From: Terriglobales bacterium
Lineage (GTDB): Bacteria > Acidobacteriota > Terriglobia > Terriglobales > Acidobacteriaceae
Length of the DNA: 64,000 nt
NCBI GenBank assembly: GCA_035567135.1
Contig: DATMQI010000112.1
Coordinates: 51,297-115,296 of the forward strand
Direction of reading: 5' to 3'
Part shown: piece by piece, positions 10,317 to 35,715 of the stretch
Layout: the number at the start of each line of letters is the position of its first letter
How positions within the stretch are numbered: position 1 is the first letter of the stretch
Position numbers and translations under genes: made by a program
Notes under the pieces: model-generated
Databases searched by the model: none
Told to the model about the DNA's origin: nothing
The model's input: only the letters and a program-made list of their open reading frames with translations

Positions 10317-11807
10317 TTATTTTCTCTTGGCGCAGGTTGAAACCTTGTAGCTCCCGATTCTGGTGTCCCAGTTAATCGGCTTCCCAGTCTCGTTTTGAGC
10401 GAAGTATTCGGTGACATACCAGAAGGTGCAATCGTCGACCGGATCGACGGTCATACTCGAGTAATCCCCCCAACTCTTGGAATCTTCCTCGTCTCCGCTT
10501 CCCCTGAAGATGACGACTTCTGTGGGTGTGGGGTTTTTTGTATTCCACCATGACGATCGGATGCCGGGGTGAGCTCCGCCGTTGGACACGTTGTAACCCA
10601 CGGCGGCGTTTCCCGCGTGGTCCTGAGCGATGCTAGGCATGAAACGAAAACGGACCTGGTCCAGATTGACTGTGCCACTCTGATAAATTGCCGGTGTTCC
10701 ACTGCCCCGGAGCTCATACCAGCCGATGGCAGTCTGAAGATTTTGTGTGTTGGCGCGGACGGTATGGCTAACCAGAAACGATTCGTAAGTACCAAAGTTG
10801 CGATAAGCAAAGCGTGGCATAAACCGGTCGCCTACCGAGTCGACCCGGTTACCGTTGATTTTGGTTGTCGATTCAGGAATGCAGAAGGTGTTGAATGGGG
10901 CCTTCGGGTTGTAGCAGCCGGGAACGTAGGTCGGAACCGTCGGAGACGAGTGCGCAAATGTCGAATTAATTGGATTGACCCAATCGACATGAAAGTCCCA
11001 AAGGTTAATCGAGTTTGAGGTCGTGCTGTGTCCGTCGTTCGGGGGATTCTGGATGCTCACCAGGAACTCGTCTCGACCCGTGGGAGGCGCAGTTGTGCCG
11101 TCAACGTCAGCCGGGATAAGGCTATGCTTAAGATAGAGAGTGCCGTTGAGTGGGATCGGATCAGGATCGCTGAAGCATTGCATCGGATTCGGAGTCGATC
11201 CGGTCAGCATATTAGTGCGGTCCAAGGCGCAAACCACAACACCGATCTGCAGATACTGGTTGTTAATGTCATTCAGATCGAAAGATACATAGTAAGCATC
11301 TGCCCAGGTACCAAACTTAGGCCAGTCCGGCCAGTAAGTGGTTCCATGGGAATTGGCGCCAAGCACATTGTTCAAGGGGAACTGGTAGGTGTACCAACTA
11401 AGATTGCTGGAGGTCAGATCGTCAGTATTGGAAATCGCAACGCAATAGTAGTAAGTGTTTGCGGCAGAGGTCGAGCGGACTGCAATCACCCAGCGCAGCG
11501 CCAGATGATCAAAGGTAATAAGGCCGTCACCGCCAACATTGAGGCAGTTGGGCAAGTTGTTTGTCTGGAATGGCTTGGTGCCCGGGATAGGTGACGACCA
11601 AACCGGAGCGTGGGTTACTTTGTCATAGGCCTGAAAAAAGACGTTGACCCATTCCATGTACTGCTTAGTGCCGACGGCGCCATTGGGATCAACGTCGTGC
11701 TGGCGACGGCCCAGTTGGCTGGCATCGATGCCCTCAAAGGACTGAACCGACTGGGCCTGCGCTAACCACGAACCCAGGAAAAGCACGAAGACTAATTTGC
11801 CGCTCAC
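10317..11807 (-). CDS. secreted protein of unknown function (paralog of the N-terminal module of 40375..43626)
   Basis: Signal peptide VFVLFLGSWLAQAQS. GTG start preceded by AAGGAG. Conserved blocks shared with the 1114-aa protein include WGDYSSMTVDPVDDCTFWY and VDSVGDRFMPRFAYRNFG. Confidence 0.7.
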   Translation of the reverse strand: MSGKLVFVLFLGSWLAQAQSVQSFEGIDASQLGRRQHDVDPNGAVGTKQYMEWVNVFFQAYDKVTHAPVWSSPIPGTKPFQTNNLPNCLNVGGDGLITFDHLALRWVIAVRSTSAANTYYYCVAISNTDDLTSSNLSWYTYQFPLNNVLGANSHGTTYWPDWPKFGTWADAYYVSFDLNDINNQYLQIGVVVCALDRTNMLTGSTPNPMQCFSDPDPIPLNGTLYLKHSLIPADVDGTTAPPTGRDEFLVSIQNPPNDGHSTTSNSINLWDFHVDWVNPINSTFAHSSPTVPTYVPGCYNPKAPFNTFCIPESTTKINGNRVDSVGDRFMPRFAYRNFGTYESFLVSHTVRANTQNLQTAIGWYELRGSGTPAIYQSGTVNLDQVRFRFMPSIAQDHAGNAAVGYNVSNGGAHPGIRSSWWNTKNPTPTEVVIFRGSGDEEDSKSWGDYSSMTVDPVDDCTFWYVTEYFAQNETGKPINWDTRIGSYKVSTCAKRK

Positions 11808-18900: not shown

Positions 18901-19203
18901 TCAATCGGAAAAAACCCCATCGGCCTTGGTAAACTGGGTATCCTGCTTGCCAATTTGGGTACGTTGCCGTATAAGAGTGGCAATTTTCTCGATGCAGCGG
19001 AAGTTTTCGATCTCGAAGTCTTGTATATCGATATGGGTGTCAAAGTTTTGCTCGATGAATAAAAGCAACTCCACAAATCTCTGCGAATCCAGAATTCCCG
19101 TATTAAACAGATCGGTATCTACCGAGGGAACCTCTACGTGCAGAACCTCCGAAAACAGGATTGACAGCCGAGTTTGAATCCTCTTCTGATCGGGGTCTCT
19201 CAT
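18901..19203 (-). CDS. DltC-like acyl/aminoacyl carrier protein
   Basis: LFNTGILDSQRFVELLLFIEQNFD resembles the DltC phosphopantetheine site (GLLDSxGxVELL). Start taken at the ATG 19201-19203, preceded by GGAGG. The track start 19287 would overlap the upstream gene. Confidence 0.75.
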   Translation of the reverse strand: MRDPDQKRIQTRLSILFSEVLHVEVPSVDTDLFNTGILDSQRFVELLLFIEQNFDTHIDIQDFEIENFRCIEKIATLIRQRTQIGKQDTQFTKADGVFSD

Positions 19204-19223
19204 GTCAGTAACTCCTCTACCTC

Positions 19224-20156
19224 CTAGCAAACTTCTACTTCGACGAGCCGATCCCCCGGCTTCAGCAGGCCTTGGGCTGGAACACATCTGTCACTGAGTC
19301 GCAATTTCGTCGCCAAAATCCACTGGTCCCCGCAAGCCACTGCAGCACCGGAATCTGTTACCTCCCCGACCGTTCCGGGTGAGACATGGCAGTCAATGCC
19401 AGTCTTAAGCGCCTTCACTACCGCAACTTCTTGCACACCTAACCGGGTCCGAGGATGCCCCCAAGGCGAGTCGAAGGGCAGGTAATCACAGGCACGAACG
19501 AAATTGATTACCTTGGATGCGGGCCATTCCCAGCACATGCGACCCCGTTCCGGCACCTCTCGACCAAAGTATTGCCGGCTTGCCAGATCCTGGTTTACCG
19601 ACGGGATGCTCTCGCCAGCCGCGGCCACTTCAAGTAAACGCAGCAGGAGCGGAATACCTTCTCGAACGCACTTGAAGCTCAGGGAAAGCGCGGTATCCAC
19701 GTCCTCGATGGGAAAGGAGGATCGATAGACAATCGGGCCAGCGTCGATCTTAGGCACGATGCGATGGACCGTGACGCCGTGGTTTTGCTCACCCCGGAAA
19801 ATCGCCCAACTCACAACATTCAACCCCGCGTAGCGCGGCAAAGGTCCAGGGTGAAGGTTGAAGGCACCCAGCTTCGGTGCAGCCAACACGTCATCGTGAA
19901 TGACGTAGAGGGAATGAACATTCAGGAAAATGTCCACCGCCTCGGATCGCAACCGCTCGGACAAACTGGAATTTCTTACCAGGTTTGCAGGTAAAGTTTC
20001 AAAGCCAAGAGCCTGCGCAGAGTTCCACAAGTTGACTCGGCTTGTGCCCGGCTTCGGAGGCTCTGTAAGGACCGCAACAACCTGATGCTCACTCTGTGCC
20101 AGCGCGCGCAACATTTGCGCGCCGGCAGATTCTTCAGCTGCGAGAACTACTCTCAT
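19224..20156 (-). CDS. Fmt/ArnA-N-like formyltransferase
   Basis: The formyl-transfer site FNLHPGPLPRYAG (Asn and His) and KIDAGPI (Asp) are present, with a C-terminal Fmt-like domain. The ATG at 20154-20156 overlaps the upstream TAA (TAATG). Confidence 0.8.
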   Translation of the reverse strand: MRVVLAAEESAGAQMLRALAQSEHQVVAVLTEPPKPGTSRVNLWNSAQALGFETLPANLVRNSSLSERLRSEAVDIFLNVHSLYVIHDDVLAAPKLGAFNLHPGPLPRYAGLNVVSWAIFRGEQNHGVTVHRIVPKIDAGPIVYRSSFPIEDVDTALSLSFKCVREGIPLLLRLLEVAAAGESIPSVNQDLASRQYFGREVPERGRMCWEWPASKVINFVRACDYLPFDSPWGHPRTRLGVQEVAVVKALKTGIDCHVSPGTVGEVTDSGAAVACGDQWILATKLRLSDRCVPAQGLLKPGDRLVEVEVC

Positions 20157-21853
20157 TACTCTTGGGCGCTGACAGTCCAAGCGAGCCAAGGTTGTTTACA
20201 GGCTACTGCATCCGAGTCAGCCTCGCTGTTGTTGACAAACAACGCGGGCCCGCGCTTGACGCTCCACTTGATTTTATCTCCTGGCGCAAACGCTCTTACG
20301 ATTTCGGGACGATCAATTTTTCCGCTCGCGTTTTTAGGCAGTTGCATACATCGCAGCCAACGCGAGGGCAACATATAGGAAGGCAGCAGTTTGCCCAGCC
20401 TGTTCCCTATCTCCAACTCGCTCATTTGGCAGTGCTCCTGCAGAACGTAGGCGCAGGCGATAAGGTTGCCCTCGAAACTTTCGGTTGGAATGGCCACTGC
20501 GGCACATTCTTTGAGCTCTTTGAAGGTATTCAGGGCAGCTTCAATTTCACCTAGCTCGATGCGATAGCCACGGCTCTTAATCTGTGTATCAGCGCGGCCC
20601 ACGAAATAAACCAGGCCATCCTCCCCGATGCGCGCGCGATCACCGGTGCGATAGATCCGGTCGTTAGACCCGTAAGAAAGAAAAGCTGCACTCGTCTTTT
20701 CGACATCACGCCAATAGCCAGGACTTAGACCTACACCTCGAATATAAAGATCGCCGACTTCACCCTGCGGAACCGGGCGCAGCTCGGCGTCCAGCACAAG
20801 CAACTCTTCTCCGTCGCAACCAATTCCAATAGGAATCGGCTGACGGCTGTCGGTTGGACATCCCGGAACCGTGTGATAACTGCTGGCAATGGTGGTTTCC
20901 GTGGGCCCGTAGAGATTGGTAAAACTAACTCGTGGAAGACGCTGCATCCAGTACATCAAAGCCGGAGTGGGCAGTACCTCACCGCACCAGAGCAGACGTT
21001 TCAGCGCGGGAAAATCATTGAACTCCACCACATCGAACCTTGCCATGTAGTTCAGCACGGAGGGAACAGAGAACCACTGGGTCAGCTTCGAATCGCGTAT
21101 GAAGTCGGCCAGCTTATTGGGCAGCAAACTCAATTCCGGAGGAACCAGATGGAGCTGGGCACCAACGGCGAAGGCACCGAAAATGTCAAAGGTCGACAGA
21201 TCAAAGTGCAGAGGGGGATGACCTGAAATGCGATCATCTGACCCCATTCCGAAGTAACGAGTGGCCCACCGCACGAAGTGGTTTACGTTGGCATGCGTGA
21301 TGACAACGCCCTTTGGTTCGCCGGTCGATCCTGAAGTGAATAAAAGATGAGCAGCATCGTGCGAGCCATTCTCGTAAGGTAGCGGCTCACTTGAAAAGTT
21401 GCTGATATCTTTCCCGACAAACCGCGGCACAAAATTTCGGCAGTCCGGCGACGCTTCCATCCAGCCCACACCAATCGAATTCCGGAATTCATCCTGGGAG
21501 AATAAATCTTCCAGCAAATTGACCGAGGCTCCTGCGCCCAGGATGTAACGAGGCTCGCTCGATCTGATCACCTTGGCAACGCGAGGAGCCGGGCTTGCAG
21601 TATCGATCGGGACGTGAATGCAATCGGCCTTCAAGATGCCGAGGATCGCGATAATGGCCTCGGGACTCTTGGGGAGCGCAAAGCATACGCGATCACCTTT
21701 GCGGCAACCGGCCGCCTTGAGAAGGCGTGCGAGCCGGTTGGTTATTTCGTCCAATTGCCCATAGGTCAGGGTGCGTCCCTGCATCACGAGAGCTACCGCG
21801 TCGGGGCGGCGCTGAGCCTGGATCGAAACCGAATTCTGCAACAGGTCTGTCAT
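20156..21853 (-). CDS. stand-alone adenylation enzyme, DltA-like (D-alanine--carrier protein ligase family)
   Basis: A-domain cores LLFTSGSTGEPKGV, FHFDLSTFDIF, LLWCGEVLP (DltA-like Cys), NLYGPTE, YRTGDRA, KSRGYRIELGEIE and SGKIDR. No C or T domain. Confidence 0.85.
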   Translation of the reverse strand: MTDLLQNSVSIQAQRRPDAVALVMQGRTLTYGQLDEITNRLARLLKAAGCRKGDRVCFALPKSPEAIIAILGILKADCIHVPIDTASPAPRVAKVIRSSEPRYILGAGASVNLLEDLFSQDEFRNSIGVGWMEASPDCRNFVPRFVGKDISNFSSEPLPYENGSHDAAHLLFTSGSTGEPKGVVITHANVNHFVRWATRYFGMGSDDRISGHPPLHFDLSTFDIFGAFAVGAQLHLVPPELSLLPNKLADFIRDSKLTQWFSVPSVLNYMARFDVVEFNDFPALKRLLWCGEVLPTPALMYWMQRLPRVSFTNLYGPTETTIASSYHTVPGCPTDSRQPIPIGIGCDGEELLVLDAELRPVPQGEVGDLYIRGVGLSPGYWRDVEKTSAAFLSYGSNDRIYRTGDRARIGEDGLVYFVGRADTQIKSRGYRIELGEIEAALNTFKELKECAAVAIPTESFEGNLIACAYVLQEHCQMSELEIGNRLGKLLPSYMLPSRWLRCMQLPKNASGKIDRPEIVRAFAPGDKIKWSVKRGPALFVNNSEADSDAVACKQPWLAWTVSAQE

Positions 21854-22878
21854 TTCGCTGCTAACTGCGAAGCTTGAGAGAAGACGACGCCGATGTGTTC
21901 CAGCTCTTCTCGGGTCGGAGGGATATCGAGAATAAAGGTCAGAAACCCGCGTTCGATGTATTTCGCCAGCTCTGACGCAACGCGGTCGTAGCTTCCAACC
22001 AGGTAAGGACAGAAAGTTTTGTAGTTTTCAAATGGCCACAACCAGTACGCGCTGTTGTTGGTCTTGGTTTCGACAGCCATCTGAGAAAGTTGTTTGTGCC
22101 ATGCCGAGTCTGAGGTTTTCATGGCTAGCTGGTGGGTCAGTTGCCCTTTGCGATCGGCCGGAAACCGTGCTTCGGCGACAGTCCATGCTTGCTCTTCTGA
22201 TTCGCGAGCGATAACGCCGACCCGCATGCCTGATTTCATCCCGGACTGACGATTATCCGGTTCACAGGCCGCCGGTTGGGGATATTTGACCGCAAGAGCG
22301 CCGAGGGCAGCCGCGGCCGTCAAACCTGCCTCGGAAGAACCTGAAACGAAGACTCCCGGCATCAATTCAGGATCCAGGGGAGGAGTCAACCGAAGTTTGT
22401 CTACCACATAGAATTCGCCGTGGTAGCTCACCTGCGCATCACCTTTTAGCAATTCCTGAATAATGGTTGTATATTCGACGACACGGGCGTAGCGCTTGTC
22501 GTGTGGGGTGTTGTCATTGAGCGCAGCCAGGTCGTTCTTGAATCCGCCGGCTACCATGTTCAGATATACGCGGCGGCCGTAGAGGTGGCCCAGAGAGCTC
22601 ACCATCTTGGCTACCGCGTACGGATGCAGGTAGGCCGGTTGTACCGCAACCAATGGGCACAATCTCTGCGTGTTCTGAATGATGATTTGCGCTACTAGCC
22701 AGGGATCGACCAGCGAGTTGTCGGTGTAGATGAGAATTCCTTCGCATCCCGCTTCCTCGCTCCAGCGAGCTACATCGACGATATTTTGCAAGTAGGACTT
22801 GCGTTCCACAGCGCTCGATTGGGGCGCGGTAGCAAAAACACGCAGGTGGGTAAGGTGATGAGTACTACGGTTCATCAT
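21850..22878 (-). CDS. LLM-class (luciferase-like) flavin-dependent oxidoreductase
   Basis: TIM-barrel LLM pattern (ARWSEEAGCEGILIYTD..., LVAVQPAYLHPYAVAKMVSSLGHLYGRRVYLNMVAGG). Its stop overlaps the downstream ATG (ATGA at 21850-21853). Confidence 0.8.
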   Translation of the reverse strand: MMNRSTHHLTHLRVFATAPQSSAVERKSYLQNIVDVARWSEEAGCEGILIYTDNSLVDPWLVAQIIIQNTQRLCPLVAVQPAYLHPYAVAKMVSSLGHLYGRRVYLNMVAGGFKNDLAALNDNTPHDKRYARVVEYTTIIQELLKGDAQVSYHGEFYVVDKLRLTPPLDPELMPGVFVSGSSEAGLTAAAALGALAVKYPQPAACEPDNRQSGMKSGMRVGVIARESEEQAWTVAEARFPADRKGQLTHQLAMKTSDSAWHKQLSQMAVETKTNNSAYWLWPFENYKTFCPYLVGSYDRVASELAKYIERGFLTFILDIPPTREELEHIGVVFSQASQLAAK

Positions 22879-22923: not shown

Positions 22924-24171
22924 CTACTTACCGGCGGTTTCCAGCATGATCGGTTTATTGCCGATGGTCACTGAGGCAGTTTTCGCAGCCAGCGGAGTGG
23001 AGGCTCCGGAGATATCCCGATAACTTTTGAAGCCGGTCGCGTCAAAGCTCGAGGTTTTTTCGTACTCGTCGTCCCAAACGATTTTGCCGTTGTAAACCGG
23101 CCCTTCAATTTTGCACGTCCAGATGTGATTTTTCGCTGCGCACCCGGAGACGGTGTGCCCGAGCAGCCATTTGTGGACTTCTCGATAAGCGGCTCCTGCC
23201 GGCAATTCACCAGTCGACTCATGCCACATGGAACCGCAGCAGGTTCGTGGATTTCCGTCATACATGTACCAATAAACCCGCCCTACGCCGGCTGAGGCCT
23301 GGAGCACATAGTAACGAACCACGAAGGCGGCCGCCTGATCAAAGCCCTGCCAATTCGCGTAATCGGTTCTGGACCAACTGCCCTCGGTGTTCCAGATAGG
23401 CTTGGACGCGAGCGCTGGATAACGGGCGACCTTCTCTTTAATTTTGTCGAAACTCTCGAGAACCGCGCCCTCGGGAATGGGATGTCCGCCGGGGAGAACA
23501 GCAGGAGAGTAACCATGCCATGCAATGATGTCAGCATACTGCCCGCCGCCGGCTGCGAAGTAATGGTCGAAATAGGGACCGGCTCCAGCTTCCGGGGTCA
23601 GCACCAGAGCGCTGGGATCTACCTCTTTAATGACTGCGGCGGCATCTTTCTCCATGCGCACCATCTGCGCATCTTTGCCATTCCAGAAATTAAAGCCACC
23701 GGGCTCGTTCCAAACGCCCCAATATTTAATCTTGGCATAGCCGGAACCCAGATGCAGGTTGTGGGTCACGATGGATCGGACAAAGGCCTTCCATAGTTCG
23801 TCGGAGCCGCCACCATCCGCGGATAGGTCGCGCGGGGGACTGCATTCGCAGTCCGCGTGAGGTCCCGAGGAAGCCCATACTGGCGTCTTGCCAAAGGTGT
23901 AAACCACATCGTCAATTCCGTTCCGCTTGGCGGTCGCGAGCCAGTCATCCAAACGCTTCCAATTGCAATTCGGGCCGGTCGGGCACAAATGCGCCCAACC
24001 CGTCGCCGTCCCCCACAAACGAATACTGCCGACCGGTACATTCGAGTTAATCGAGGCCATGCGGTTGAAGTGCATGCCGAAGAATGTGGGTGTTATTGGA
24101 CCTTGGGAGAGGCAAGGGATTGCGAGCGCGAGAATCAAAACGAACCTGAGCAAAGGTCTCATCGTTTGCAT
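22924..24171 (-). CDS. secreted clan GH-A-like glycoside hydrolase (paralog of 46866..48191)
   Basis: Signal peptide (LLRFVLILALAIPCLSQG). YWGVWNEPGGFNFWNG has the NEP acid/base motif, and WNTEGSW is a candidate nucleophile Glu. The start is uncertain (24171 or 24162). The track start 24213 overlaps the upstream gene. Confidence 0.65.
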   Translation of the reverse strand: MQTMRPLLRFVLILALAIPCLSQGPITPTFFGMHFNRMASINSNVPVGSIRLWGTATGWAHLCPTGPNCNWKRLDDWLATAKRNGIDDVVYTFGKTPVWASSGPHADCECSPPRDLSADGGGSDELWKAFVRSIVTHNLHLGSGYAKIKYWGVWNEPGGFNFWNGKDAQMVRMEKDAAAVIKEVDPSALVLTPEAGAGPYFDHYFAAGGGQYADIIAWHGYSPAVLPGGHPIPEGAVLESFDKIKEKVARYPALASKPIWNTEGSWSRTDYANWQGFDQAAAFVVRYYVLQASAGVGRVYWYMYDGNPRTCCGSMWHESTGELPAGAAYREVHKWLLGHTVSGCAAKNHIWTCKIEGPVYNGKIVWDDEYEKTSSFDATGFKSYRDISGASTPLAAKTASVTIGNKPIMLETAGK

Positions 24172-24193
24172 TCGTCTTTCAGCAGTCGGGGGA

Positions 24194-24817
24194 TCAGGAG
24201 CGGGCATAAGCAATGAGATTGAGCCCGAAAGGTCCAGCCGCCTCGACGTGAGCCCCGGGCAACATTTGTTGCAGTTCGCGAGCAGATACTAGCCGGAGTG
24301 GCTCCCAACTCCGCATGTGTCCGAAAGAAAGATGAATTGCGATTTCCTGCATCCGCTTCGGCAGTAGATGGTAGAACGGCAAATAGGTGTGGGGGTCGAG
24401 AAAGAAATGCTTGTTCGGTGTGGACAGAAAGTAGCCGACACGCGCGACACGCTGCATTTCCTTGGCGAATTGCTGCTGCTTCGCGAGGTCGCCAACATGC
24501 TCCAGCACCGCATTGGAGAAGACCCAGTCAAAGCTGCGATCCGGATATGGCAAGGAACATCCGTCTGCGACTTCCACAGTGACGTTGGCTGCAGGTTTCT
24601 CGCGAGTGTTACAGTCGGGATCGCAATTCACCACCACGACGGTGTGAAACCGCTCGCGAAGGCGATTCCATTCGCCCGCAATTCCGGGTGAGCCGCCAAC
24701 ATCGAGCAGTGACATCGAACTGTCCGGCTGCATGATCTCAACCGCCGTCTGAGAACGGCTGGCGCGCAACCGAGCGTGGACTGGGCTGGTGAGCCTAAGG
24801 AGCAGAGGCGTGGACAT
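24194..24817 (-). CDS. class I SAM-dependent methyltransferase
   Basis: Motif I LLDVGGSPG and WVFSNAVLEHVGD. ATG at 24815-24817 preferred. The track uses the TTG at 24862. Confidence 0.75.
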   Translation of the reverse strand: MSTPLLLRLTSPVHARLRASRSQTAVEIMQPDSSMSLLDVGGSPGIAGEWNRLRERFHTVVVVNCDPDCNTREKPAANVTVEVADGCSLPYPDRSFDWVFSNAVLEHVGDLAKQQQFAKEMQRVARVGYFLSTPNKHFFLDPHTYLPFYHLLPKRMQEIAIHLSFGHMRSWEPLRLVSARELQQMLPGAHVEAAGPFGLNLIAYARS

Positions 24818-26069: not shown

Positions 26070-29000
26070 TTACAGGCTGGAGTCGCCGTCGAAGAAACTC
26101 GGATCCCAGGGCTCAGGTCTCTCTAGACGAGCCGCCAAGCGCTGGTTATTTGTCCGATAAAAATATCGCCAGGAGGCAAGTTCCCGATGATGCGGATTCA
26201 TACTTTCAATGATCCGCTGTTTCTCAGAGCTGAAGCCGACGGCTTCGAGAATATAGATGCCCTCGTCGTGGCACCTGCGCAATGCCTGGTACAGAATGGG
26301 TCTGAGCAATTCGCTCTTGCCCGGCTCTGCCTGCAGATCGACAAGGCGCATGCGCTTCAGCCCCAGCCCGGGATTGTCCTGCCGGCATACGATTCCGTAT
26401 GCGGCAAGGTCATCCCCGTTATTCACGCTCAGCACCCACGCATTGTTTTTCTTGAGAGCATTTCCAAAGTGCCACTCCAGCACCTCGCGCGAGCGGCAAG
26501 CCCGCAAACCGGACGAACTCTTTCGAACGCGGCTCCAGAATTGCTCAAAGCTCTCGTCAAAGTGCTTGGAGAAACGAACCTCGACTCCGTTTCGTCTGGA
26601 ATGCAGGGCCCGTCCGGTGAGAGCGTCTCGAAGGAACAGTCCGGCGGAGAGCGGGTAACTCAAGCCCGGCGCACCTGGGAACTCCCTCTTGTGAAGAAAA
26701 CTCATGGTGAAAGCGCGATAGTTGGTAATCCAGAATGAGGACCGGTCCCAGGCGCCTGCCGGAACTCGCAAGCATTGGAACATCTCTTGCAGCTTCGACG
26801 CTTTGGCGTTGACCGTAGTATTCAGAAACAGGTCAACATTCGGCTGGTTGAAAAACTCGCCGAGCAGAGCGAAAGAGTAAGGACGATAACGGGAATCGAC
26901 GACCAGAGAGCGGCTGGTGGCGACCAGCAGCGGTTCATCGTCGAACTCGTATAGCAGGGGAATGTTCGCAATTGATCCGACGATTTCCTGGTCGGCATTC
27001 TCGCATACCCAACCGATCGGCCATCGCGATGTTCGTTGATAAGCCGGGTTGCGGTTCCACAAATCGACCCATTCTTCATATTTCTTGGGCTGGAGCCCGT
27101 AACGGGATTCCAGGGCTGCAATTTGGGGATAGTCCTCGAATGTGAGTTCGCGCAGCTGCGGTGCAGCGGACTTAGAACCTCTTTTTGCCGATCGGGACAA
27201 CTCCTTGTCCATTTCGGCGTCTTTCAAACAGACTCGCAGCTTGTCGGCCAGCAAGTCGACATTCTCCTCATGGAACATGGACTCGTGTCCGCCCCGAATT
27301 TTATGAAGTTCCAAATCTCCGCCAATCATTCCATTCCAGCTGGCATGAAAATCCCAATAGCGGCCTTTGGGCCAGTCAGTGGATTGGAAGAACACCACGC
27401 GTCCCGGATACGGCTTCGGGCGATAGACAAATGAAGCCGGATGCACGATGTGCTCCAGATCTTCGAGTCGCTCGATGCTTACACGGCGGTGGAAGGCATG
27501 CAAAGCGCGCCAGTAGCGCACACTGAGACGACGGCGAACGCCAATGACTCGATCGGTGAGGAAATCGGCAAGTCCCGGCAAGCCGCTGCGGCGAAGATTG
27601 GAAAACTGGAATCCGACCCTTCTGCGCAACAACTCGCTCCGGCTTTCCTGCGAGAAGTCCTCGTAATAAGCGGGATTTTGCGCGTCGAAGACCACCAGGA
27701 GCGCAATTTCTTCTCCTTGCTCGATCAGTTGTCTGGCAATCTCGTAGGCGATGACCCCATTTACGCACAAGCCGGCGATAAAGTAGGGCCCTTTGGGTTG
27801 CACTTCCCGCATGCAGCGGAGCAGGGCTCCGGCAATGTCTTCGAGCTTATACGGAACCTGCAAACGCGCAGCCTCAGATGCCGGGAGATGGAGTCCCAAG
27901 AGCGGACGATCCGTGCCCAAGCGGTGAGCCAATGGAAGGAAGAGTGGCCCACCCCGAACCCAAAACAGCGGCGGCTTGGAACCTTCCGGCTGAATTGGAA
28001 CCACCGCGGGATGATGAAGGGGTATTTCCTGTCCGCCTACTAGCCCCGCCAATTGCCGAATCGTAGGCGCTTGGAATATGTTGGCCAGCGTGAGTGCCTT
28101 CCCCAATCGTTGCTCAATCCGGAGCAAGAGCTTGGCGACCAACAGCGAGTTGCCACCCAAATCGAAGAAATTGTCGGTGATGCCGATCTCTTGCTTGCCA
28201 AGAACCGCCTTCCAAACTTCCACCAGTTCGGACTGCAGGGCATTCTCTGGGGGAACAAATGTTGTTGCGGAGACCGTCTGTTCCGCTGTGAGAGCCTGGC
28301 GATCCAGTTTGCCGTTCGGCATCAAGGGCAAGGTTTCCATGGTTACAAATGCCGACGGCACCATGGGCTCCGGGAGCCTCTTGCTTAAAAAGCTGCGTAG
28401 CTTGTCCGAATCAAATTGCGTCGCATTGAGTGGCACAACGAAAGCAACCAGGCCGGGTTCACCTTCCTTGCCTTCACGCAGCGCCACCGCCACTTGCCGC
28501 ACTTCCGGATAGTCAGAAATTACCGCTTCAATTTCCTCCAGTTCGATTCGAAAGCCGCGAATCTTTACCTGATGATCGAGCCTTCCAAGGAGTTCCAGAG
28601 TGCCATCCGGCAGCCAGCGGACCAAGTCTCCAGTCTTATAAAGCCGAGCACCAGGAGTTCGCTGAAATGGATCGGCTATGAATCTTTCCGCGGTTTCCGC
28701 AGGGCGGTTCAGATATCCACGTGCGACGCCAGGTCCACCGACGTAAAGCTCGCCCGGCACACCGACTGGCAAAAGGTTCAAGTGAACGTCGAGCACATAC
28801 ACTTGAGCGTTTGGAATCGGACGACCGATCGGAACCAGCCTCGACGGCTGACCCGCTTCGCACCTGTGCACCGTACTCCACACGCTGGCTTCCGTGGGAC
28901 CGTATTCGTTGTACAGGGTGGCGGCAGGTAGCAGCCGATGATGACGCGCGACGAGCTCGGCAGGACAGCTTTCTCCGGCAACAATTGTCACCTTTAAGGA

Positions 29001-31307
29001 CGCCAATTCTTCCGGCTTTGCCTGATCCAATAGCAGGCTGTACAGGGACGGAACGCACAAAAGATGCGAAACGCGGTGCTGCGCAATCAGCGGCGCAAGT
29101 CGCGTCAAATTCCCCTGAAGCGGCCCTGGAGTTAGGACCAGAGATCCGCCGCGGCACAAAGTGCCAAAAATACCTACGAGCGAACTGTCAAAGGCAAATG
29201 ACGAGAGTAAAAGGAAGCGTCCGGCATCCGGCCCGTAGTAAATTGAGCGGGCGTAGGTGGAGTGAACCAGATTACGATGCGTAATCTGGACTCCTTTCGG
29301 TTTGCCGGTTGAGCCCGAGGTGTAGATCACATAGGCTAAGTTCTCGGGTCCAGCTTGACTGGACACCGGTGTCGTGCTTTCCCCTTCCACACGCGCCCAT
29401 TCCGAGTCCAAACACAGAACTTCGACGTCGTCCGCAACGGGCAACTCTGCTTTCAGATGTTGCTGGGTCAGGAGCACATGAAGCTGAGTGTCGGCAAAGA
29501 CATGTTGCAGCCGTTCGGCGGGATACGTGGGATCCAACGGTACGCATGCCCCGCCGGATTTCAGCACCGCCAGAATCCCGACAATCATTTCGGATGAGGG
29601 CTCGACGAACAGCCCAACCGGGATCTCAGGACCAACGCCGTGCTGTTGAAGGTACGCCGCCAATTGATTGCTTCTGCGGTCGAGCTCAGCATAGGTCAAC
29701 TGTCCGCGGCCATCGACGACAGCCTCGGCATCAGGAGCCCGTTTGACCTGATCTACGGACAAGTCGTGCAGGCGAAGATGTGCTGGAAATGTGGCGCTAG
29801 TGGCATTCCAGTCTACGCAGAGCTGCTGGCGCTCCTGCGCCGAAAGGATTGGCAGAGCGGAGACATGCTGGTCCGGATTCGCGCAGGCACTCTCCATGAG
29901 CAACGTAATATGCTCCGCCATGCGAGCGACCGTTTCAGGTTCAAATAGATCAGTGCTGTACTTGAAGCGCCCCACGATGCCGGAGGGACGGTCATCCAGT
30001 TCGAGGCACAAATCAAACTTGGAAATTCCGGTGTCAACCTCCGACTGGGTGAGAGCCACACTCCAACCATCGTGCGACTGAGGCATCGGTGGTTCCAGGG
30101 TCAATAACACCTGGAACAGTGGATTGAAGCTCAAGCTACGATTCGGGCGTACGGCGTTCACCACCTGGGTAAACGGAGCATCGTCATTCGATAAAGCATC
30201 CAGGGTCACGTTGCGCGTGCGGCGCAGCAATTCGCGGAAGGTGGGATCACCCGCCAAGTCGTTTTGCAGAACGACCGGATTCATAAAGTATCCCAAAAGG
30301 CCTTCCAACTCGGAGCGCTTGCGTCCGGAGCTCACCGTTCCAATGGCCACGTCATCGCGCGCAGAATAGCGATGCAGGAGCGCGGCAAAGCCAGTCAGCA
30401 GCGTCATAAACAAGGATGCGCCTTCTTGCCGACTCAATACCTTCAAGGCGTCAGCCAGGTTTTTGGACAGGGAGACGGGGTGAATTGCACCGCGGAAACT
30501 CTGGATTGCGGGACGGAGATGGTCGTAGGGCAGCTGCAGAGCAGAAGGATTCGCACTAAGCCGCTCCCGCCAGTATGCCAATTGGGAAGATAGCCGTCCG
30601 CCGCGAGGAAGCCATTCCCGCTCCCAGATGGCGTAGTCCGAATACTGGATTGGCAACTCGGGCAGAGGTGACGCTTCTCCTCTAGAAAAGGCCGTGTACA
30701 GAGCAGCCAACTCGGGCAGAAGTACCCGGTAAATCGAGTAGCCGTCGAAAATAATGTGATGAAGGGTTAAGAACAGACGATGTTCAACGTCGCTGAGCCG
30801 GACCAATAAAACGCGGAACAGCGGCCACCGGGACAAATCAAAGGGACGCATCGCGTCTTCGACCGCCAAGCGATGTGCTTCTGATTCTCGTTCCGCGGCT
30901 GGGAGTTGACTCAGGTCGACAAAAGGTACGGCCACCGGAGCCGGTGGGCCGATCAACTGGACGGGTTCGGCTTCGGCCAGAGTAACGGTAGTCCGCCAGG
31001 CCTGGTGCCGCCGTACGATTTCGGTCAGGGCGAGTTCCAGGGCATGTACATCCAACGTCCCCTGACGATGGATGGTCACCGGTTCGTTGTAAACCGGGAT
31101 GCCGGGAACCATCTGCGTGTGCAGCCAAATCTGTTGCTGCGCGAACGACAGGGGTGCCGTATCGCCGTTGGCTCGACGCGTGACCGCGTTCGTAACCGCC
31201 AGTTTGGCAGTCGACGCCGTGGTAGGTTCCTTAACTTGTGCTATGTTGCCCATCTTGGGGGAGTCGCCGTGAGTCAGTTCCAACCCACTCGCGCTACTTC
31301 GGGGCAC
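26070..31307 (-). CDS. non-ribosomal peptide synthetase, C-A-T-TE plus C-terminal tandem-GNAT-like domain
   Basis: C domain: LSFAQQQIW and HHIIFDGYS. A domain: LAYVIYTSGSTGKPKGV, FAFDSSL, NEYGPTE, GELYVGGPGVARGY, YKTGDLVRW, KIRGFRIELEEIE and PNGKLDR. T domain: FFDLGGNSLL. TE domain: YFIAGLCVNG...VVFDA...GGHESMF. A further 361-aa extension follows. The start could be 31307 or the ATG 54 nt downstream. Confidence 0.9.
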   Translation of the reverse strand: MPRSSASGLELTHGDSPKMGNIAQVKEPTTASTAKLAVTNAVTRRANGDTAPLSFAQQQIWLHTQMVPGIPVYNEPVTIHRQGTLDVHALELALTEIVRRHQAWRTTVTLAEAEPVQLIGPPAPVAVPFVDLSQLPAAERESEAHRLAVEDAMRPFDLSRWPLFRVLLVRLSDVEHRLFLTLHHIIFDGYSIYRVLLPELAALYTAFSRGEASPLPELPIQYSDYAIWEREWLPRGGRLSSQLAYWRERLSANPSALQLPYDHLRPAIQSFRGAIHPVSLSKNLADALKVLSRQEGASLFMTLLTGFAALLHRYSARDDVAIGTVSSGRKRSELEGLLGYFMNPVVLQNDLAGDPTFRELLRRTRNVTLDALSNDDAPFTQVVNAVRPNRSLSFNPLFQVLLTLEPPMPQSHDGWSVALTQSEVDTGISKFDLCLELDDRPSGIVGRFKYSTDLFEPETVARMAEHITLLMESACANPDQHVSALPILSAQERQQLCVDWNATSATFPAHLRLHDLSVDQVKRAPDAEAVVDGRGQLTYAELDRRSNQLAAYLQQHGVGPEIPVGLFVEPSSEMIVGILAVLKSGGACVPLDPTYPAERLQHVFADTQLHVLLTQQHLKAELPVADDVEVLCLDSEWARVEGESTTPVSSQAGPENLAYVIYTSGSTGKPKGVQITHRNLVHSTYARSIYYGPDAGRFLLLSSFAFDSSLVGIFGTLCRGGSLVLTPGPLQGNLTRLAPLIAQHRVSHLLCVPSLYSLLLDQAKPEELASLKVTIVAGESCPAELVARHHRLLPAATLYNEYGPTEASVWSTVHRCEAGQPSRLVPIGRPIPNAQVYVLDVHLNLLPVGVPGELYVGGPGVARGYLNRPAETAERFIADPFQRTPGARLYKTGDLVRWLPDGTLELLGRLDHQVKIRGFRIELEEIEAVISDYPEVRQVAVALREGKEGEPGLVAFVVPLNATQFDSDKLRSFLSKRLPEPMVPSAFVTMETLPLMPNGKLDRQALTAEQTVSATTFVPPENALQSELVEVWKAVLGKQEIGITDNFFDLGGNSLLVAKLLLRIEQRLGKALTLANIFQAPTIRQLAGLVGGQEIPLHHPAVVPIQPEGSKPPLFWVRGGPLFLPLAHRLGTDRPLLGLHLPASEAARLQVPYKLEDIAGALLRCMREVQPKGPYFIAGLCVNGVIAYEIARQLIEQGEEIALLVVFDAQNPAYYEDFSQESRSELLRRRVGFQFSNLRRSGLPGLADFLTDRVIGVRRRLSVRYWRALHAFHRRVSIERLEDLEHIVHPASFVYRPKPYPGRVVFFQSTDWPKGRYWDFHASWNGMIGGDLELHKIRGGHESMFHEENVDLLADKLRVCLKDAEMDKELSRSAKRGSKSAAPQLRELTFEDYPQIAALESRYGLQPKKYEEWVDLWNRNPAYQRTSRWPIGWVCENADQEIVGSIANIPLLYEFDDEPLLVATSRSLVVDSRYRPYSFALLGEFFNQPNVDLFLNTTVNAKASKLQEMFQCLRVPAGAWDRSSFWITNYRAFTMSFLHKREFPGAPGLSYPLSAGLFLRDALTGRALHSRRNGVEVRFSKHFDESFEQFWSRVRKSSSGLRACRSREVLEWHFGNALKKNNAWVLSVNNGDDLAAYGIVCRQDNPGLGLKRMRLVDLQAEPGKSELLRPILYQALRRCHDEGIYILEAVGFSSEKQRIIESMNPHHRELASWRYFYRTNNQRLAARLERPEPWDPSFFDGDSSL
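26073..27155 (-). other. C-terminal tandem GNAT-fold (FemAB/CelD-like) domain fused to the NRPS
   Basis: Residues 1385-1745 of the NRPS align end to end with the stand-alone ORF 31340..32551. 28 of the first 60 aligned residues are identical by my count. Both end in the same terminal motif, WDPSFFDGDSSL versus WDPSCFDGDASL. Confidence 0.75.
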
Positions 31308-31339: not shown

Positions 31340-32551
31340 TTAGAGGCTTGCGTCACCGTCGAAACATGAGGGATCCCAAACTTCTGGATTTTTCAGGATC
31401 TCGGCCAACTCGGGGTTCGCGGTCTTGTAAAAATAGCGCCAAGATGAAAGAACGCGCTTGTGCGGCAAAAGACTATCGATGACACGCTGCTTCTCCGGGG
31501 CAAAGCCCATGGCTTCCAACATATGAATGCCCTCCCTCCGGCAGCGTTCGAAGGCATGACAAAGTAACGGTCTGAGAAGTTCCGTCTGCCCGTTGAGTGC
31601 CTGAAAATCCACCAGGCGTACTCGCTTCAGCGAAAACAACGGGTTGTCCTGGCGAAGGAAAACCGCGTAGGCAGATAATTTCGAGCCCTCGCTGAGGGTC
31701 ATCACCCAGGCCCGGCCGTCTGCCAAAGCGTGCTTGAAATGCCAATCCAGCATCGGCTGGGAGCGATTGGCCAGAAGGCGGTCCGGAGAACTCTTACGCA
31801 ACGTTTGCCAGAAGTCTTCAAAACGTTCGTCAAGTTTGGTGCAGAAACTGGGTTCCAAACCATTGCGGCGTATTCTCAGCGTCCGGCCTTCGAGAGTGTC
31901 GCGAAGAAAGAGGCCCGCCGACAAAGGATAATGGAGCAGCCCTTTCGCTTCTCGCATTTCCTTTCTTGCCAGCAGACTCGCACTGAAGCCTTTGTAGTTT
32001 GTGATCCAAAAGAAAGCTTGATCCCATATTCCCGCGGGCACGCGCCGGGCACGAAAGATTTCGTGGGCCTTCAATGCACCGGGTCCGACAGTAGTATCGA
32101 GAAATAGATCGACTTGTTTCTGGTTGAAGAACAAACTTAAGAGCGGTACAGAGTAGCTTCGATAACGTTCATCGACTACCAAGCCACGAGTGGATGTAAC
32201 AATCACATTGCGGCTGCCCAACTGGTAGCAACGCGGAAGATTCCCAATATAGCCGACCACGCGGTTATCTTCGTTTTCCAGCAACCAGCCGATGGGCCAA
32301 TTCGGAAGACTCTGGCACGCAGGATTGTCCGCCCACAGATGGATCCACGCTTCGCTCGTCTCCGTCTCCATGCCGTAGCGAGCCTGCAGTTCGGAAATCT
32401 GCCGATAGTCGTCAAACCTGACCTGACGGAACCGGACGCTGGATTTGGGGACGGGGTCAGTTGGCACACCATCCGCCGGAACCTTCATCGCCTCGAGTCC
32501 GCCCACCGCGTTCGCACTCGCTTCTTTTGAAAACATCTGCGGTTCAGTCAC
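31340..32551 (-). CDS. stand-alone tandem GNAT-fold (FemAB/CelD-like) acyl/aminoacyl-transferase
   Basis: GNAT-like cores VVGYIGNLP...GLVVDERYRSYSVPLL and LSAYAVFLRQDN...RVRLVDFQAL...FERCRREGIHMLEAMGF. Its GTG start shares one nucleotide with the P450 TAG stop. An alternative ATG is at 32536. Confidence 0.7.
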   Translation of the reverse strand: MTEPQMFSKEASANAVGGLEAMKVPADGVPTDPVPKSSVRFRQVRFDDYRQISELQARYGMETETSEAWIHLWADNPACQSLPNWPIGWLLENEDNRVVGYIGNLPRCYQLGSRNVIVTSTRGLVVDERYRSYSVPLLSLFFNQKQVDLFLDTTVGPGALKAHEIFRARRVPAGIWDQAFFWITNYKGFSASLLARKEMREAKGLLHYPLSAGLFLRDTLEGRTLRIRRNGLEPSFCTKLDERFEDFWQTLRKSSPDRLLANRSQPMLDWHFKHALADGRAWVMTLSEGSKLSAYAVFLRQDNPLFSLKRVRLVDFQALNGQTELLRPLLCHAFERCRREGIHMLEAMGFAPEKQRVIDSLLPHKRVLSSWRYFYKTANPELAEILKNPEVWDPSCFDGDASL

Positions 32552-33834: not shown

Positions 33835-35715
33835 TCAGTCCGCGGAAATTTCGGTGGTTAAGATGCGTTCGATTTCGAACGACAGTTCCGCTGCTGTCGG
33901 CGAATCGAAGACCATCCGCAGCGGAAGCTCGATGCCGAAAATATTTCGGACTCGCGCAATCAACTGCGTGCCCAACAAGGAATGTCCACCCAGAAAGAAG
34001 AAATTGTCATTTACGCCCACCTTCTCCAACCCAAGCAGTTCAGCCAGAATGGAAGAGATTTGTTGCTCCACAGGCGTGCGCGGAGAGAGATAAACTTCGT
34101 CCCCGATCGTATCCACCGGGGTCGGTGCTGGAAGCGCTGCGTAGTCAACCTTGCCGCTGGATTTCAAGGGCAAGGAATCGAGTCGCACAAAAACCGGCGG
34201 CACCATGTAGTCGGGCAGTTGGGCACGCAGGTGTTCCTGAAGCGCGCCCCGGGTGAGCTGAGGATCGGAGCTGACCAGGTAAGCCACCAGCCGTTTGTCG
34301 GCGCCATTGTCTGCTCGCGCCACAACCACGCTGGTTTGCACTCCGGGATATTGGTTCAAGAGACTCACGATTTCGTTAGGCTCAATGCGATATCCGCGGA
34401 TTTTGATTTGCTCATCCTTTCGTCCGAGGAAAGCAATCTGCCCATCCGGCAGGTAACGCGTTAAGTCGCCGGTACGATACAGACGGTCGTTGGGCAAGCT
34501 GCTGAATGGATTGAGAACAAAAGCCTCCGCGTCTTGCTCCGGACGATTCAAATATCCCCGCGCCAGACCAGCGCCTCCAATGCATAACTCCCCGACGGCG
34601 CCAACTGGGACCTGCTGCAGATCATCATCCAAAATGTAAGTCTGCACGTTGTCGATAGGACGTCCGATTGTCGGCTGACGATCCGGGCGCTTATCTGACG
34701 AGACCTGACCGGAGGTTGCAACAACAGTGCATTCGGTCGGACCGTAGTTGTTAATCAGGGAAAATGGCAAGTTCCCCGCAGGATACCGATGCAGCGTGTC
34801 AGCCCCAGTCAGCAGCACGCGAAGTGATGTCTGGGCCGGCCAGTCTAACCCCAGAAGACTTTCCGCCATCGGGGTAGGAACGAATCCGATGGTGATTCCT
34901 TGAGCCAGCAGCCAGTCGCGTAGGTTTCTGGCGACTCCGCGCGTCGCATCATCCGCAAAGATGACAGCGGCACCGGCAGTCAGGTAGGGCCAGATTTCCC
35001 AAACGGCTGCATCGAAACCGAAGCTTGCGACCTGACTCGCTCGGTCGGCTCCAGTAACCGAGAAAGCCCGGCGATGCCAGTAGATCAAATTAAGCAGTCC
35101 GGCGTGGGTGATCTGAACAGCTTTAGGCTGACCCGACGATCCCGACGTATAAATCACATACGCAAGGTTCTGGGCGTTGACAGACACAGCCGGTGCGCTC
35201 CGCGGCGGAGTGGCCACGTCCGCATCTCCCTCGTCCATGATCAAGACTTGCCAATCACCGGCAGGCAAAGTCCGCGCGACCTGCGCGTCTGTGATGAGGA
35301 CGCGAAGTTGTGTGTCGCGCAGCATGAATTCCAAACGGCGCACCGGGTAATCGGAATCCATAGGCACGTAGGCTCCGCCCGCCTTCATTACGGCCAGCGC
35401 GGCGACTACCATTCCCGGCGAGCGCGGCAGGCAAATTCCTACCAGCGCTTCCGGACCTACTCCGAGAGACTGTAGATTCTGGGCAAGTTGATTCGCCCGG
35501 CACTCGAGTTGATGGTAGGTCAGGGTCCGGCTATCCGATTTAAGGGCAAGTGCGTCCGGTGTTGCTCTTGCCTGTTCGCTAACCAAATCCGACACAAGCG
35601 ACTCGCGAGGATAGTCACGAAAGGTATTGTTCCAGGCATGGGATGGCATCTCGGTCGGATGCACCGATGCCATTCCGTCAGTAGGGGAGTTCGAAGTGGT
35701 TATTTGCGGCTTCAA
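33835..35715 (-). CDS. stand-alone NRPS loading didomain, A-T (predicted Leu)
   Basis: A-domain cores LAYVIYTSGSSGQPKAV, FGFDAAVWEIW, NNYGPTECTVVAT, GELCIGGAGLARGY, YRTGDLTRY, KIRGYRIEPNEI and SSGKVDY. T domain FFFLGGHSLL. The start is uncertain (TTG 35715, ATG 35673 or ATG 35649). Confidence 0.9.
   Translation of the reverse strand: MKPQITTSNSPTDGMASVHPTEMPSHAWNNTFRDYPRESLVSDLVSEQARATPDALALKSDSRTLTYHQLECRANQLAQNLQSLGVGPEALVGICLPRSPGMVVAALAVMKAGGAYVPMDSDYPVRRLEFMLRDTQLRVLITDAQVARTLPAGDWQVLIMDEGDADVATPPRSAPAVSVNAQNLAYVIYTSGSSGQPKAVQITHAGLLNLIYWHRRAFSVTGADRASQVASFGFDAAVWEIWPYLTAGAAVIFADDATRGVARNLRDWLLAQGITIGFVPTPMAESLLGLDWPAQTSLRVLLTGADTLHRYPAGNLPFSLINNYGPTECTVVATSGQVSSDKRPDRQPTIGRPIDNVQTYILDDDLQQVPVGAVGELCIGGAGLARGYLNRPEQDAEAFVLNPFSSLPNDRLYRTGDLTRYLPDGQIAFLGRKDEQIKIRGYRIEPNEIVSLLNQYPGVQTSVVVARADNGADKRLVAYLVSSDPQLTRGALQEHLRAQLPDYMVPPVFVRLDSLPLKSSGKVDYAALPAPTPVDTIGDEVYLSPRTPVEQQISSILAELLGLEKVGVNDNFFFLGGHSLLGTQLIARVRNIFGIELPLRMVFDSPTAAELSFEIERILTTEISAD

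Follow-up and report, generated by a model that had tools for sequence, protein, structure and literature searches.

Organization of the four-gene cassette

The stretch of DNA analysed here (64,000 nt, referred to below as the window) belongs to a metagenome-assembled genome (MAG) of an uncultured member of the Terriglobales (Acidobacteriota), and it contains four consecutive minus-strand genes that we describe as a cassette. The cassette opens with LLM342, a stand-alone luciferase-like flavin monooxygenase (LLM) of 342 aa (21850-22878; PF00296), followed by A565, a stand-alone adenylation (A) enzyme of the nonribosomal peptide synthetase (NRPS) type with 565 aa (20156-21853; AMP-binding and AMP-binding_C), FT310, an Fmt/ArnA-N-type formyltransferase of 310 aa (19224-20156; Formyl_trans_N and Formyl_trans_C), and PCP100, a small stand-alone carrier of 100 aa (18901-19203; PP-binding). 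Coordinates and Pfam domains agree with the four open reading frames (ORFs), their order and the motifs described in a first-pass annotation of this DNA, and the strings LHFDLSTFDIF, LLWCGEVLP, GILDSQRFVELLLFIEQNFD, FNLHPGPLPRYAG and KIDAGPI were found in the cassette proteins.

The first three genes are coupled through overlaps. Specifically, the stop codon of LLM342 overlaps the start codon of A565 in ATGA, and the stop codon of A565 overlaps the start codon of FT310 in TAATG. A gap of 20 nt separates FT310 from PCP100, with TAGGAGG/GAGGAG ahead of the carrier ATG, so the translational coupling and the separate GGAGG of the carrier that had been noted earlier are both seen. No convincing promoter or terminator was found inside the four-gene block, where site counts stayed at the level of shuffled sequence. 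Pfam scans of all window ORFs of at least 150 aa gave neither MBOAT nor DltD, as the first-pass annotation had reported, and returned no lipid A acyltransferase (AlmG/LpxM-type) domain. In the genome as a whole, no DltD was found; MBOAT gave two matches, both unlinked to the cassette (contigs C228 and C232).

A565 is an NRPS-type ligase with a Dlt-like pocket

A565 scores 370.1 bits against TIGR01733, above the cut-off of 317.4, and its specificity code has Asp235 first and Lys517 last. Because both residues are present and TIGR01733 is passed, the substrate is predicted to be an alpha-amino acid; as the first-pass annotation had supposed, the enzyme is an amino-acid adenylation domain and does not group with fatty-acyl or aryl ligases. 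Membership in the DltA family was rejected, with 286.3 bits against a cut-off of 559.85 for TIGR01734 and 299 against 476 for NF003417. A six-frame search of the genome found no DltA over the model cut-off and gave the four A domains of the window roughly equal DltA-model scores of 240-274 bits, all below cut-off. When a profile of 22 A565 orthologues was compared with solved structures, TycA (365 bits), BmdB (364 bits) and Txo2 (361 bits) came out on top, followed by the DltA entries at 259-325 bits and by AlmE (4OXI), which at 281 bits stays below most of them. Judged by these profiles, A565 is overall a generic stand-alone NRPS-type A domain, and only its pocket is Dlt-like.

The pocket of A565 aligns without gaps with that of DltA from B. 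subtilis and B. cereus (sequences of PDB 3E7W and 3DHV); BLOSUM scores to the DltA pocket are 154-159 for A565 and 63-121 for the window's remaining three A domains. CGEVLP occurs unchanged in A565 and DltA, and Cys290 of A565 falls on Cys269 of B. cereus DltA, which is said, from work of Du et al. in 2008, to be the residue that excludes L-Ala. This Cys is invariant in 33/33 A565 orthologues. The ten-residue code, whose positions were placed by motif alignment, reads DLFFLCLIAK in A565 and D-L-M-T-M/L-C-T-V-A-K in DltA; D, L, L299, C301, A331 and K are common to A565 and the B. cereus enzyme, and positions 239, 278, 322 and 330 are bulkier in A565. DLFFLCLIAK is identical in 25 of the 33 orthologues, from many phyla, and recurs in a second ligase subfamily with an overall identity of 34-36%. 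The near-invariance of the code across phyla points to a very small substrate. From the conserved Cys we further infer that L-residues bearing a side chain are disfavoured, and from the filled pocket that glycine is preferred to D-Ala; both are possible.

The carrier and the formyltransferase

PCP100 matches PF00550 at 30.9 bits and carries its phosphopantetheine Ser40 within GILDSQ. Retention of the modified Ser had been anticipated, and Ser40 is invariant in 18 orthologues; the genome holds two phosphopantetheinyl transferase (PPTase) genes. The best named models for PCP100 are those of DltC, yet both cut-offs are failed (TIGR01688, 35 bits versus 52.35; NF003464, 40.6 versus 68), and membership in DltC was rejected. 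Against solved structures the family profile ties between a type II peptidyl carrier protein (PCP; 48.7 bits) and DltC (48.3 bits). In the carrier of Azospirillum halopraeferens DSM 3675 (L102:10991-11197), GLINSV stands in place of LDS, with the Ser kept and the Asp lost. Taken together, the earlier description of ligase and carrier as DltA/DltC-like stands for pocket and motifs, where the alignment is ungapped and Cys290 meets Cys269, and falls at the level of families, where the Dlt equivalog models are failed and NRPS A domains outscore DltA.

FT310 exceeds the gathering scores of both PF00551 (81.1 bits) and PF02911 (37.9 bits). The Asn-His-Asp site, described earlier as intact, corresponds to N100, H102 and D138, which are invariant in 24 homologues. 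The family profile scores 133 bits against ArnA-N, 113 against Fmt, 77 against FDH-N and 40 against the formylation (F) domain of LgrA. An assignment as methionyl-tRNA formyltransferase was rejected (TIGR00460, 111 bits versus a cut-off of 201.5), and a separate housekeeping fmt-like gene with 32% identity lies elsewhere in the genome, on contig C265. Full ArnA was rejected as well (NF005998, 121 bits versus 777), the 310-aa protein being without the dehydrogenase (decarboxylase) domain, and so was an LgrA-type NRPS F domain, given 40 bits versus 133 for ArnA-N and the separate gene. One in-frame read-through fusion of formyltransferase and carrier was found in a metagenome relative (P0100); further candidate fusions of formyltransferase or ligase to carrier in 80 genome loci were discarded, all of the long ORFs being N-terminal over-calls.

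LLM342 resembles two-component flavin monooxygenases

LLM342 matches PF00296 at 126.8 bits (gathering score 27.9). Its best named models are those of SsuD, at 118-120 bits and far below cut-off (TIGR03565, 117.6 versus 518.2), which rules it out as SsuD alkanesulfonate monooxygenase; by profile it is assigned to the group C, SsuD-like flavin monooxygenases. The first-pass annotation had suggested an LLM of the TIGR04020 type, and this did not hold up: the model gave no match at E 0.01 or better, and the nearest models are the sub-threshold SsuD-like ones. A split MtaG-type A(MOx) module was likewise rejected on the lack of a TIGR04020 match and on the nearest relatives, since the best 150 of 341 strong LLM342 relatives among representative proteins are all stand-alone (130-524 aa). 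Because a variant locus described below (L117) carries a Flavin_Reduct gene, the LLM is taken to be a two-component, FMNH2-dependent monooxygenase.

The cassette recurs in polysaccharide loci of many phyla

Of 25 genomes of the genus, 15 encode an FT310 orthologue (52-82% identity). In five of six genus genomes compared, synteny extends over the whole locus, and a synthetase with condensation (C), A, thiolation (T), thioesterase (TE) and X domains (C-A-T-TE-X) is usually followed by a sulfotransferase gene and then by LLM, ligase, formyltransferase and carrier. Within the genus, NRPS-like genes are interleaved in conserved order with genes for Bac_transf, a flippase-like protein, Wzy, GT4 and a deacetylase. 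The MAG has an estimated contamination of 8.3%, and the syntenic loci in relatives argue against a chimera arising from it.

A pattern scan with one genome per species recovered the FT310 subfamily (motif NLHPGPLP) in 243 stretches from at least 10 phyla, with representatives in Acidobacteriota, Actinomycetota, Gemmatimonadota, Heliobacteriaceae, Verrucomicrobiota, Rokubacteria, Chloroflexia, Nitrospiria, Phycisphaerales, Balneolaceae, Binatus and Proteobacteria, the last including the cultured Azospirillum halopraeferens DSM 3675 and Bradyrhizobium. For co-occurrence, genes up to 6 kb away from the formyltransferase were counted, using loci with a flank of 6 kb or more on each side. Outside the genus (n = 29), a ligase was found in 25 loci, an LLM in 22 (at 53-68% identity), a carrier in 24, all three in 19 and a C-A-T-TE-like NRPS in none; at genus level (n = 15), the corresponding counts are 14, 14, 15, 14 and 14. 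Formyltransferase and carrier adjoin in 24 of the 29 loci across phyla, usually with the formyltransferase first and a short gap. Since 19/29 outside loci hold all three partners and 0/29 the NRPS, the cassette is, as judged from gene content, an autonomous and mobile unit whose association with an NRPS arose only in this lineage. A relative of the ligase occurs in 27 of 401 sampled genomes of the phylum, eight of them at 48% identity or higher.

Glycan genes adjoin the cassette in every phylum sampled, in agreement with the earlier expectation that it is not normally found outside polysaccharide loci. The recurrent neighbours elsewhere are GT2, GT4, Bac_transf, DegT (aminotransferase genes in seven related loci), an AsnB-like amidotransferase, a deacetylase, a carbamoyltransferase, a FemAB-like GNAT and a GNAT of about 375 aa. 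The deacetylase family recurs near the cassette in 13 loci of other phyla and in A. halopraeferens.

The variant locus L117, from one of the eight genomes of the phylum with a ligase relative at 48% identity or higher (G078), consists of an LLM, a ligase with 61% identity, a small GNAT (Acetyltransf_3), a carrier and the Flavin_Reduct gene. As the small GNAT takes the place of the formyltransferase here, the capping enzyme apparently can be either a formyl- or an acetyl-type transferase.

Several further arrangements were observed. Two loci, L038 (genome G011) and L045 (Terriglobales), contain formyltransferase and carrier only, with no ligase, LLM or NRPS within 5-10 kb. An acidobacterial locus (L055:490-9068) combines the formyltransferase with an A-T protein (Leu code), a P450, a C-T protein without A domain, an Sfp-like PPTase and a DUF2334/deacetylase-like protein, and its contig has no A565-type ligase and no LLM. 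The A. halopraeferens locus (L102) also has a second ligase/carrier pair besides its deacetylase and its ~375-aa GNAT. In three sister lineages (L052:8667-9974, L047 and G022), a 435-aa protein is encoded between ligase and formyltransferase. It is membrane-anchored at its N-terminus, shows weak similarity to GDSL/SGNH proteins (Lipase_GDSL_2, E 5e-4) and gave no match to PF04914; its weaker relatives follow the carrier in other genus-level loci, and the gene is absent from the window. DltD is likewise a membrane-anchored SGNH-fold protein.

The surrounding locus encodes a candidate transferase

From about 60 kb down to about 5.7 kb, the minus strand of the window is nearly all one polysaccharide locus. 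Export and assembly are represented by Wza, Wzc-like proteins, Bac_transf, a flippase-like protein with 10-12 transmembrane segments, Wzy, GT4 and WecG, and sugar modification by a polysaccharide deacetylase (37981-38793, minus strand; PF01522, 71.7 bits), RmlC, RmlD and four sulfotransferases; two methyltransferases and secreted Ig/NHL/FG-GAP proteins complete the set. Interleaved with these are thiotemplate genes, namely an A-T-TE protein, FkbH (TIGR01686, 283 bits) with a small acyl carrier protein, an A-T didomain protein (33835-35715; Leu-type code) with a P450 partner, the stand-alone protein unk403 (31340-32551, minus strand; 403 aa) and the C-A-T-TE-X synthetase (26070-31307, minus strand; 1745 aa, with domains assigned by Pfam). 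Outside the cassette, the window thus encodes three additional A domains and two TE domains, together with a C domain of the LCL type, FkbH and a P450, all of which the first-pass annotation had missed.

C-A-T-TE-X lies about 3.2 kb upstream of the cassette, with three genes (sulfotransferase, methyltransferase and GH39-like) between them; in relatives, at most the sulfotransferase gene intervenes. When compared with reference C domains, that of C-A-T-TE-X reaches 213-329 bits with the LCL type, 103-119 with the DCL type and 47 with starter domains, a typing that rests on the donor chirality of the PDB entries. The X domain, that is, the last ~370 residues after the TE domain (26070-27200, minus strand), has no Pfam or NCBIfam match and is 52-59% identical to unk403, of which it is a second copy. 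In several related loci (L032, L033, L035, L036, L046 and G001/G021) tblastn places this segment on its own, some 70-970 nt beyond the TE domain, so that it may be a separate ORF there and the C-A-T-TE-X fusion is not universal.

An AlphaFold model of unk403 (pLDDT 75, pTM 0.76) found its best PDB matches by Foldseek in N-myristoyltransferases (NMTs; E about 1e-12, TM about 0.5). NMTs have a tandem-GNAT fold, in which the acyl group of a pantetheine thioester is passed on to an amine. The ~375-aa GNAT family mentioned above (c4) adjoins the cassette in 15 loci and is located in the interval between carrier and formyltransferase in actinobacterial loci and directly upstream of the LLM in Azospirillum. 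A c4 representative matches Acetyltransf_9, and hhalign shows homology between c4 and the unk403/X family (96%, E 4.6e-9, 276 columns). In Bradyrhizobium (L057), a member of the unk403 family itself is encoded between formyltransferase and LLM, and synteny of tandem GNAT and cassette is seen in L057, L058 and L102. Based on the profile homology, the synteny in Bradyrhizobium and Azospirillum and the NMT-like predicted fold, the tandem-GNAT family is a likely candidate for the transferase that takes the acyl group off the carrier. Another family of about 375 aa (c7) was seen in seven loci, often directly after formyltransferase or carrier; it has no Pfam match, its N-terminus is GNAT-like by eye only, and kinship with the tandem-GNAT family was rejected at an hhalign probability of 6.6%.

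A proposed tailoring route and its alternatives

We lean, with modest confidence, towards reading the cassette as a self-contained carrier-protein system that tailors surface polysaccharides by loading, capping, oxygenation and transfer. First, A565 would very probably activate a very small alpha-amino acid, with glycine favoured and D-alanine possible, and install it as a thioester on the phosphopantetheine arm of PCP100 Ser40. Second, FT310 may formylate the amine of the carrier-bound residue from N10-formyl-tetrahydrofolate, a part that the GNAT would play in sister cassettes; this N-formylation is proposed because formyltransferase and carrier are steadily adjacent, are fused in frame in one case and show replacement of the formyltransferase by a GNAT. 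Parallels are the formylation of Met-tRNA by Fmt and that of Val-S-PCP by the LgrA F domain. Third, the SsuD/NtaA-like LLM, fed by a flavin reductase, may oxygenate the tethered residue. The alpha-carbon would be the most likely site, a best guess by analogy with NtaA, EmoA, MOx-type LLMs and BtrO; NtaA, EmoA and the MOx-type LLMs hydroxylate N-CH2-CO carbons. Fourth, a tandem GNAT (unk403 or the X domain) may transfer the acyl group from the thioester to a sugar amine in the repeat unit, an amine that the deacetylase of the locus, or DegT aminotransferases elsewhere, could supply. The unit would then be exported by the Wzx/Wzy/Wza/Wzc machinery of the same operon array. In this genus, the formyl-aminoacyl carrier may instead, or also, prime the C domain of C-A-T-TE-X.

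The first-pass annotation had proposed a small-amino-acid (possibly D-Ala-like) carrier system whose product is formylated or oxidised and delivered by a different transferase. The NRPS-type A domain, the conserved Ser, the setting in polysaccharide loci and the tandem-GNAT candidate speak for this proposal, whereas its attribution to the Dlt families and its LLM type were not sustained, glycine is at least as likely as D-Ala, and the C-A-T-TE protein may take the product.

Several points weigh against this route. All of its steps are read from the sequence of an uncultured MAG, and it is by inference that we name the substrate, the oxygenation site and the acceptor. As a family, A565 and its relatives resemble DltA or AlmE no more than they do ordinary NRPS A domains, so the substrate prediction depends on ten pocket positions. 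The nearest relative of FT310 is ArnA-N, a sugar-nucleotide formyltransferase, and the fusion of formyltransferase and carrier was seen once only. The LLM is absent from 7 of the 29 loci outside the genus, which makes it accessory. The tandem GNATs of the window are not beside the cassette, their two copies lying 3-9 kb upstream, and they may serve other carriers of the locus.

An alternative that we consider unlikely, though the strongest of the competitors, is that the cassette forms the dissociated initiation module (A, F, T and a tailoring oxygenase) of the neighbouring NRPS, whose product would be an N-formyl dipeptide put on the polysaccharide or released by the fused tandem GNAT/TE. C-A-T-TE-X lacks its own loading module, its first domain being a C domain, and the LCL-like type of this domain implies that a carrier-bound donor is needed, which in this reading would be formyl-aminoacyl-S-PCP100. 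Furthermore, cassette and NRPS are neighbours in 14/15 genus-level loci, NRPS starter units are classically marked by N-formylation, as in LgrA, and L055 pairs the formyltransferase with A-T, P450 and C-T proteins. However, none of the 29 loci outside the genus has such an NRPS, yet cassette and specificity code are unchanged there. The A-T protein with its P450 would be a more canonical loading module for the C domain, a D-Ala donor is not expected for an LCL-type C domain, and in the window three genes part the NRPS from the cassette.

Improbable, in our estimate, is a variant of the tailoring route built on analogy with hydroxamate siderophore pathways, in which a hydroxylase is teamed with a formyl- or acetyltransferase. 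Here the LLM would N-hydroxylate or alpha-hydroxylate the carrier-bound glycine, FT310 would turn it into an N-formyl-N-hydroxyglycyl (hadacidin-like hydroxamate) or N-formyl-alpha-hydroxyglycyl thioester, and the tandem GNAT would graft the product onto amino sugars. If it were true, the exopolysaccharides of many soil phyla would carry metal-binding or reactive glycine-derived groups of a kind not yet described.

Equally doubtful, in our view, is the idea that FT310 is a sugar-nucleotide N-formyltransferase (ArnA-N/VioF-like) that acts on an amino sugar of the repeat unit and is a mere neighbour of an unrelated acyl-donor module of ligase, carrier and LLM. By structure and profile it comes closest to ArnA-N, with Fmt next; sugar formyltransferases score as well, and the DegT genes of related loci are in keeping with such a role. 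Against this, the formyltransferase keeps its place beside the carrier in most loci across phyla, including loci where the pair persists without ligase and LLM, and it is fused in frame with the carrier in one relative. In the window it is translationally coupled to the ligase, and in the sister cassette the small GNAT that occupies its slot between ligase and carrier fits capping of a tethered amine.

True Dlt-type D-alanylation, in which an unlinked MBOAT protein would place cationic D-Ala esters on a surface polymer, appears very improbable. It would account for the DltA-like pocket with its enantiomer-selecting Cys and for the DltC-like motif of the carrier, and two MBOAT genes do exist on other contigs. 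However, neither ligase nor carrier comes near the cut-off of its Dlt model, DltD is missing from the genome, the MBOAT genes are unlinked, and the pocket of A565 offers less room than that of DltA. D-alanylation, moreover, serves to introduce a positive charge, which would be lost once the conserved formyltransferase or GNAT had capped the amine. Finally, production of a free small molecule (a formylated peptide or siderophore-like compound) by cassette and NRPS genes merely encoded in an exopolysaccharide locus seems just as remote. The four A domains, C domain, two TE domains, P450 and FkbH of the window speak for it. Against it, the cassette is without an NRPS partner in other phyla, where it always lies among glycosyltransferase, deacetylase, aminotransferase and export genes, and within the genus the NRPS-like genes are interleaved with polysaccharide genes in conserved order.

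Relation to known systems

The tailoring route opens like the Dlt system (DltA/C/B/D) of Gram-positive teichoic acids, where a small amino acid destined for a surface glycopolymer is placed on a dedicated small carrier by a stand-alone adenylation enzyme. Pocket residues D235, L236, C301, A331 and K517 are common to both ligases, as is CGEVLP, and the carrier sequence LDSxxxVELL resembles DltC. Unlike Dlt, the cassette stays below the DltA and DltC cut-offs, has no DltD and no MBOAT in its locus, and adds a formyltransferase and a flavin monooxygenase. Its transfer step is probably a cytoplasmic N-acylation by the tandem GNAT, in contrast to the extracytoplasmic O-esterification of Dlt, and its product would be N-capped and hence not cationic.

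AlmE, AlmF and AlmG of Vibrio cholerae put glycine on lipid A (PMC4278540). The two systems have in common a Dlt-like pair of ligase and carrier in a diderm without DltB/DltD and, if the tailoring route holds, a small amino acid and a cytoplasmic acyltransferase that removes it from the carrier. AlmG, however, is an LpxM-type lipid A acyltransferase, a kind not found in the window; AlmEFG has neither formyltransferase nor LLM, and the target of the cassette would be a polysaccharide. The cassette thus resembles Dlt and AlmEFG in that a ligase and a carrier feed a surface polymer, and it is a member of neither.

In LgrA of linear gramicidin synthesis (F-A-T), a carrier-bound amino acid is N-formylated with N10-formyl-tetrahydrofolate, as proposed for the cassette. 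The formyltransferase of the cassette is separate, belongs to the ArnA/Fmt clade with an Fmt-type C-terminal domain, and in most lineages is not followed by a C domain.

In butirosin biosynthesis, an LLM (BtrO) and a separate flavin reductase reportedly hydroxylate a carrier-tethered amino acid whose amine is acyl-protected, as described by Li et al. in 2005. The parallel would extend from the LLM and flavin reductase acting on a tethered, amine-capped residue to a dedicated acyltransferase that passes it to a sugar amino group. A published account lists the gene set for the 4-amino-2-hydroxybutyrate (AHBA) side chain as BtrI, J, K, O, V, H and G (PMC13707489). The butirosin route differs in its ATP-grasp ligase, where the cassette has an A domain, in gamma-glutamyl rather than formyl protection, in its aminoglycoside acceptor and in BtrH, which is not a tandem GNAT.

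The siderophore hydroxamate pairs PvdA/PvdF, CchB/CchA and IucD/IucB combine an oxygenase with an Fmt-like formyltransferase or a GNAT acetyltransferase, the same alternation as in the cassette variants. Their hydroxylases, however, are FAD/NADPH class B enzymes acting on side-chain amines of free ornithine or lysine, not LLMs acting on a carrier-bound residue.

A full-text literature search brought up no paper that deals with the cassette. Bacterial polysaccharides are known from their chemistry to bear formyl groups and amide-linked amino acids; to our knowledge, few of the genes responsible have been identified. If true, the tailoring route would represent a thiotemplate path to polysaccharide decorations in at least 10 phyla, including dominant uncultured soil groups, and would link the chemistry of NRPS-type carriers to polysaccharide assembly of the Wzx/Wzy type. 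With it comes a candidate transferase family that bears no annotation, the NMT-like tandem GNATs. In this genus, the link of the cassette to the C-A-T-TE synthetase suggests a peptide-decorated, sulfated slime, which could affect soil aggregation, metal binding and recognition by phages or predators. The idea is open to direct testing in cultured bacteria that carry the cassette, for example Azospirillum halopraeferens DSM 3675 or strains of Bradyrhizobium.

Further features of the window

Directly upstream of the FkbH gene, a 124-aa carrier with the motif GKLDSLGL is encoded at 37626-38000, which brings the window to five carrier domains. A 496-aa secreted protein (10317-11807) is about 38% identical to the N-terminal part of a 1114-aa Ig-repeat protein (~41950-43630), and neither has a Pfam family. 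Two secreted paralogues (22924-24213 and 46815-48191), 35-37% identical to each other, bear a weak GH39-like TIM-barrel signature, one of them being encoded directly upstream of the LLM gene. The insertion of GH39-like and methyltransferase genes between NRPS and cassette was seen only in the window and in its closest relative, G004.

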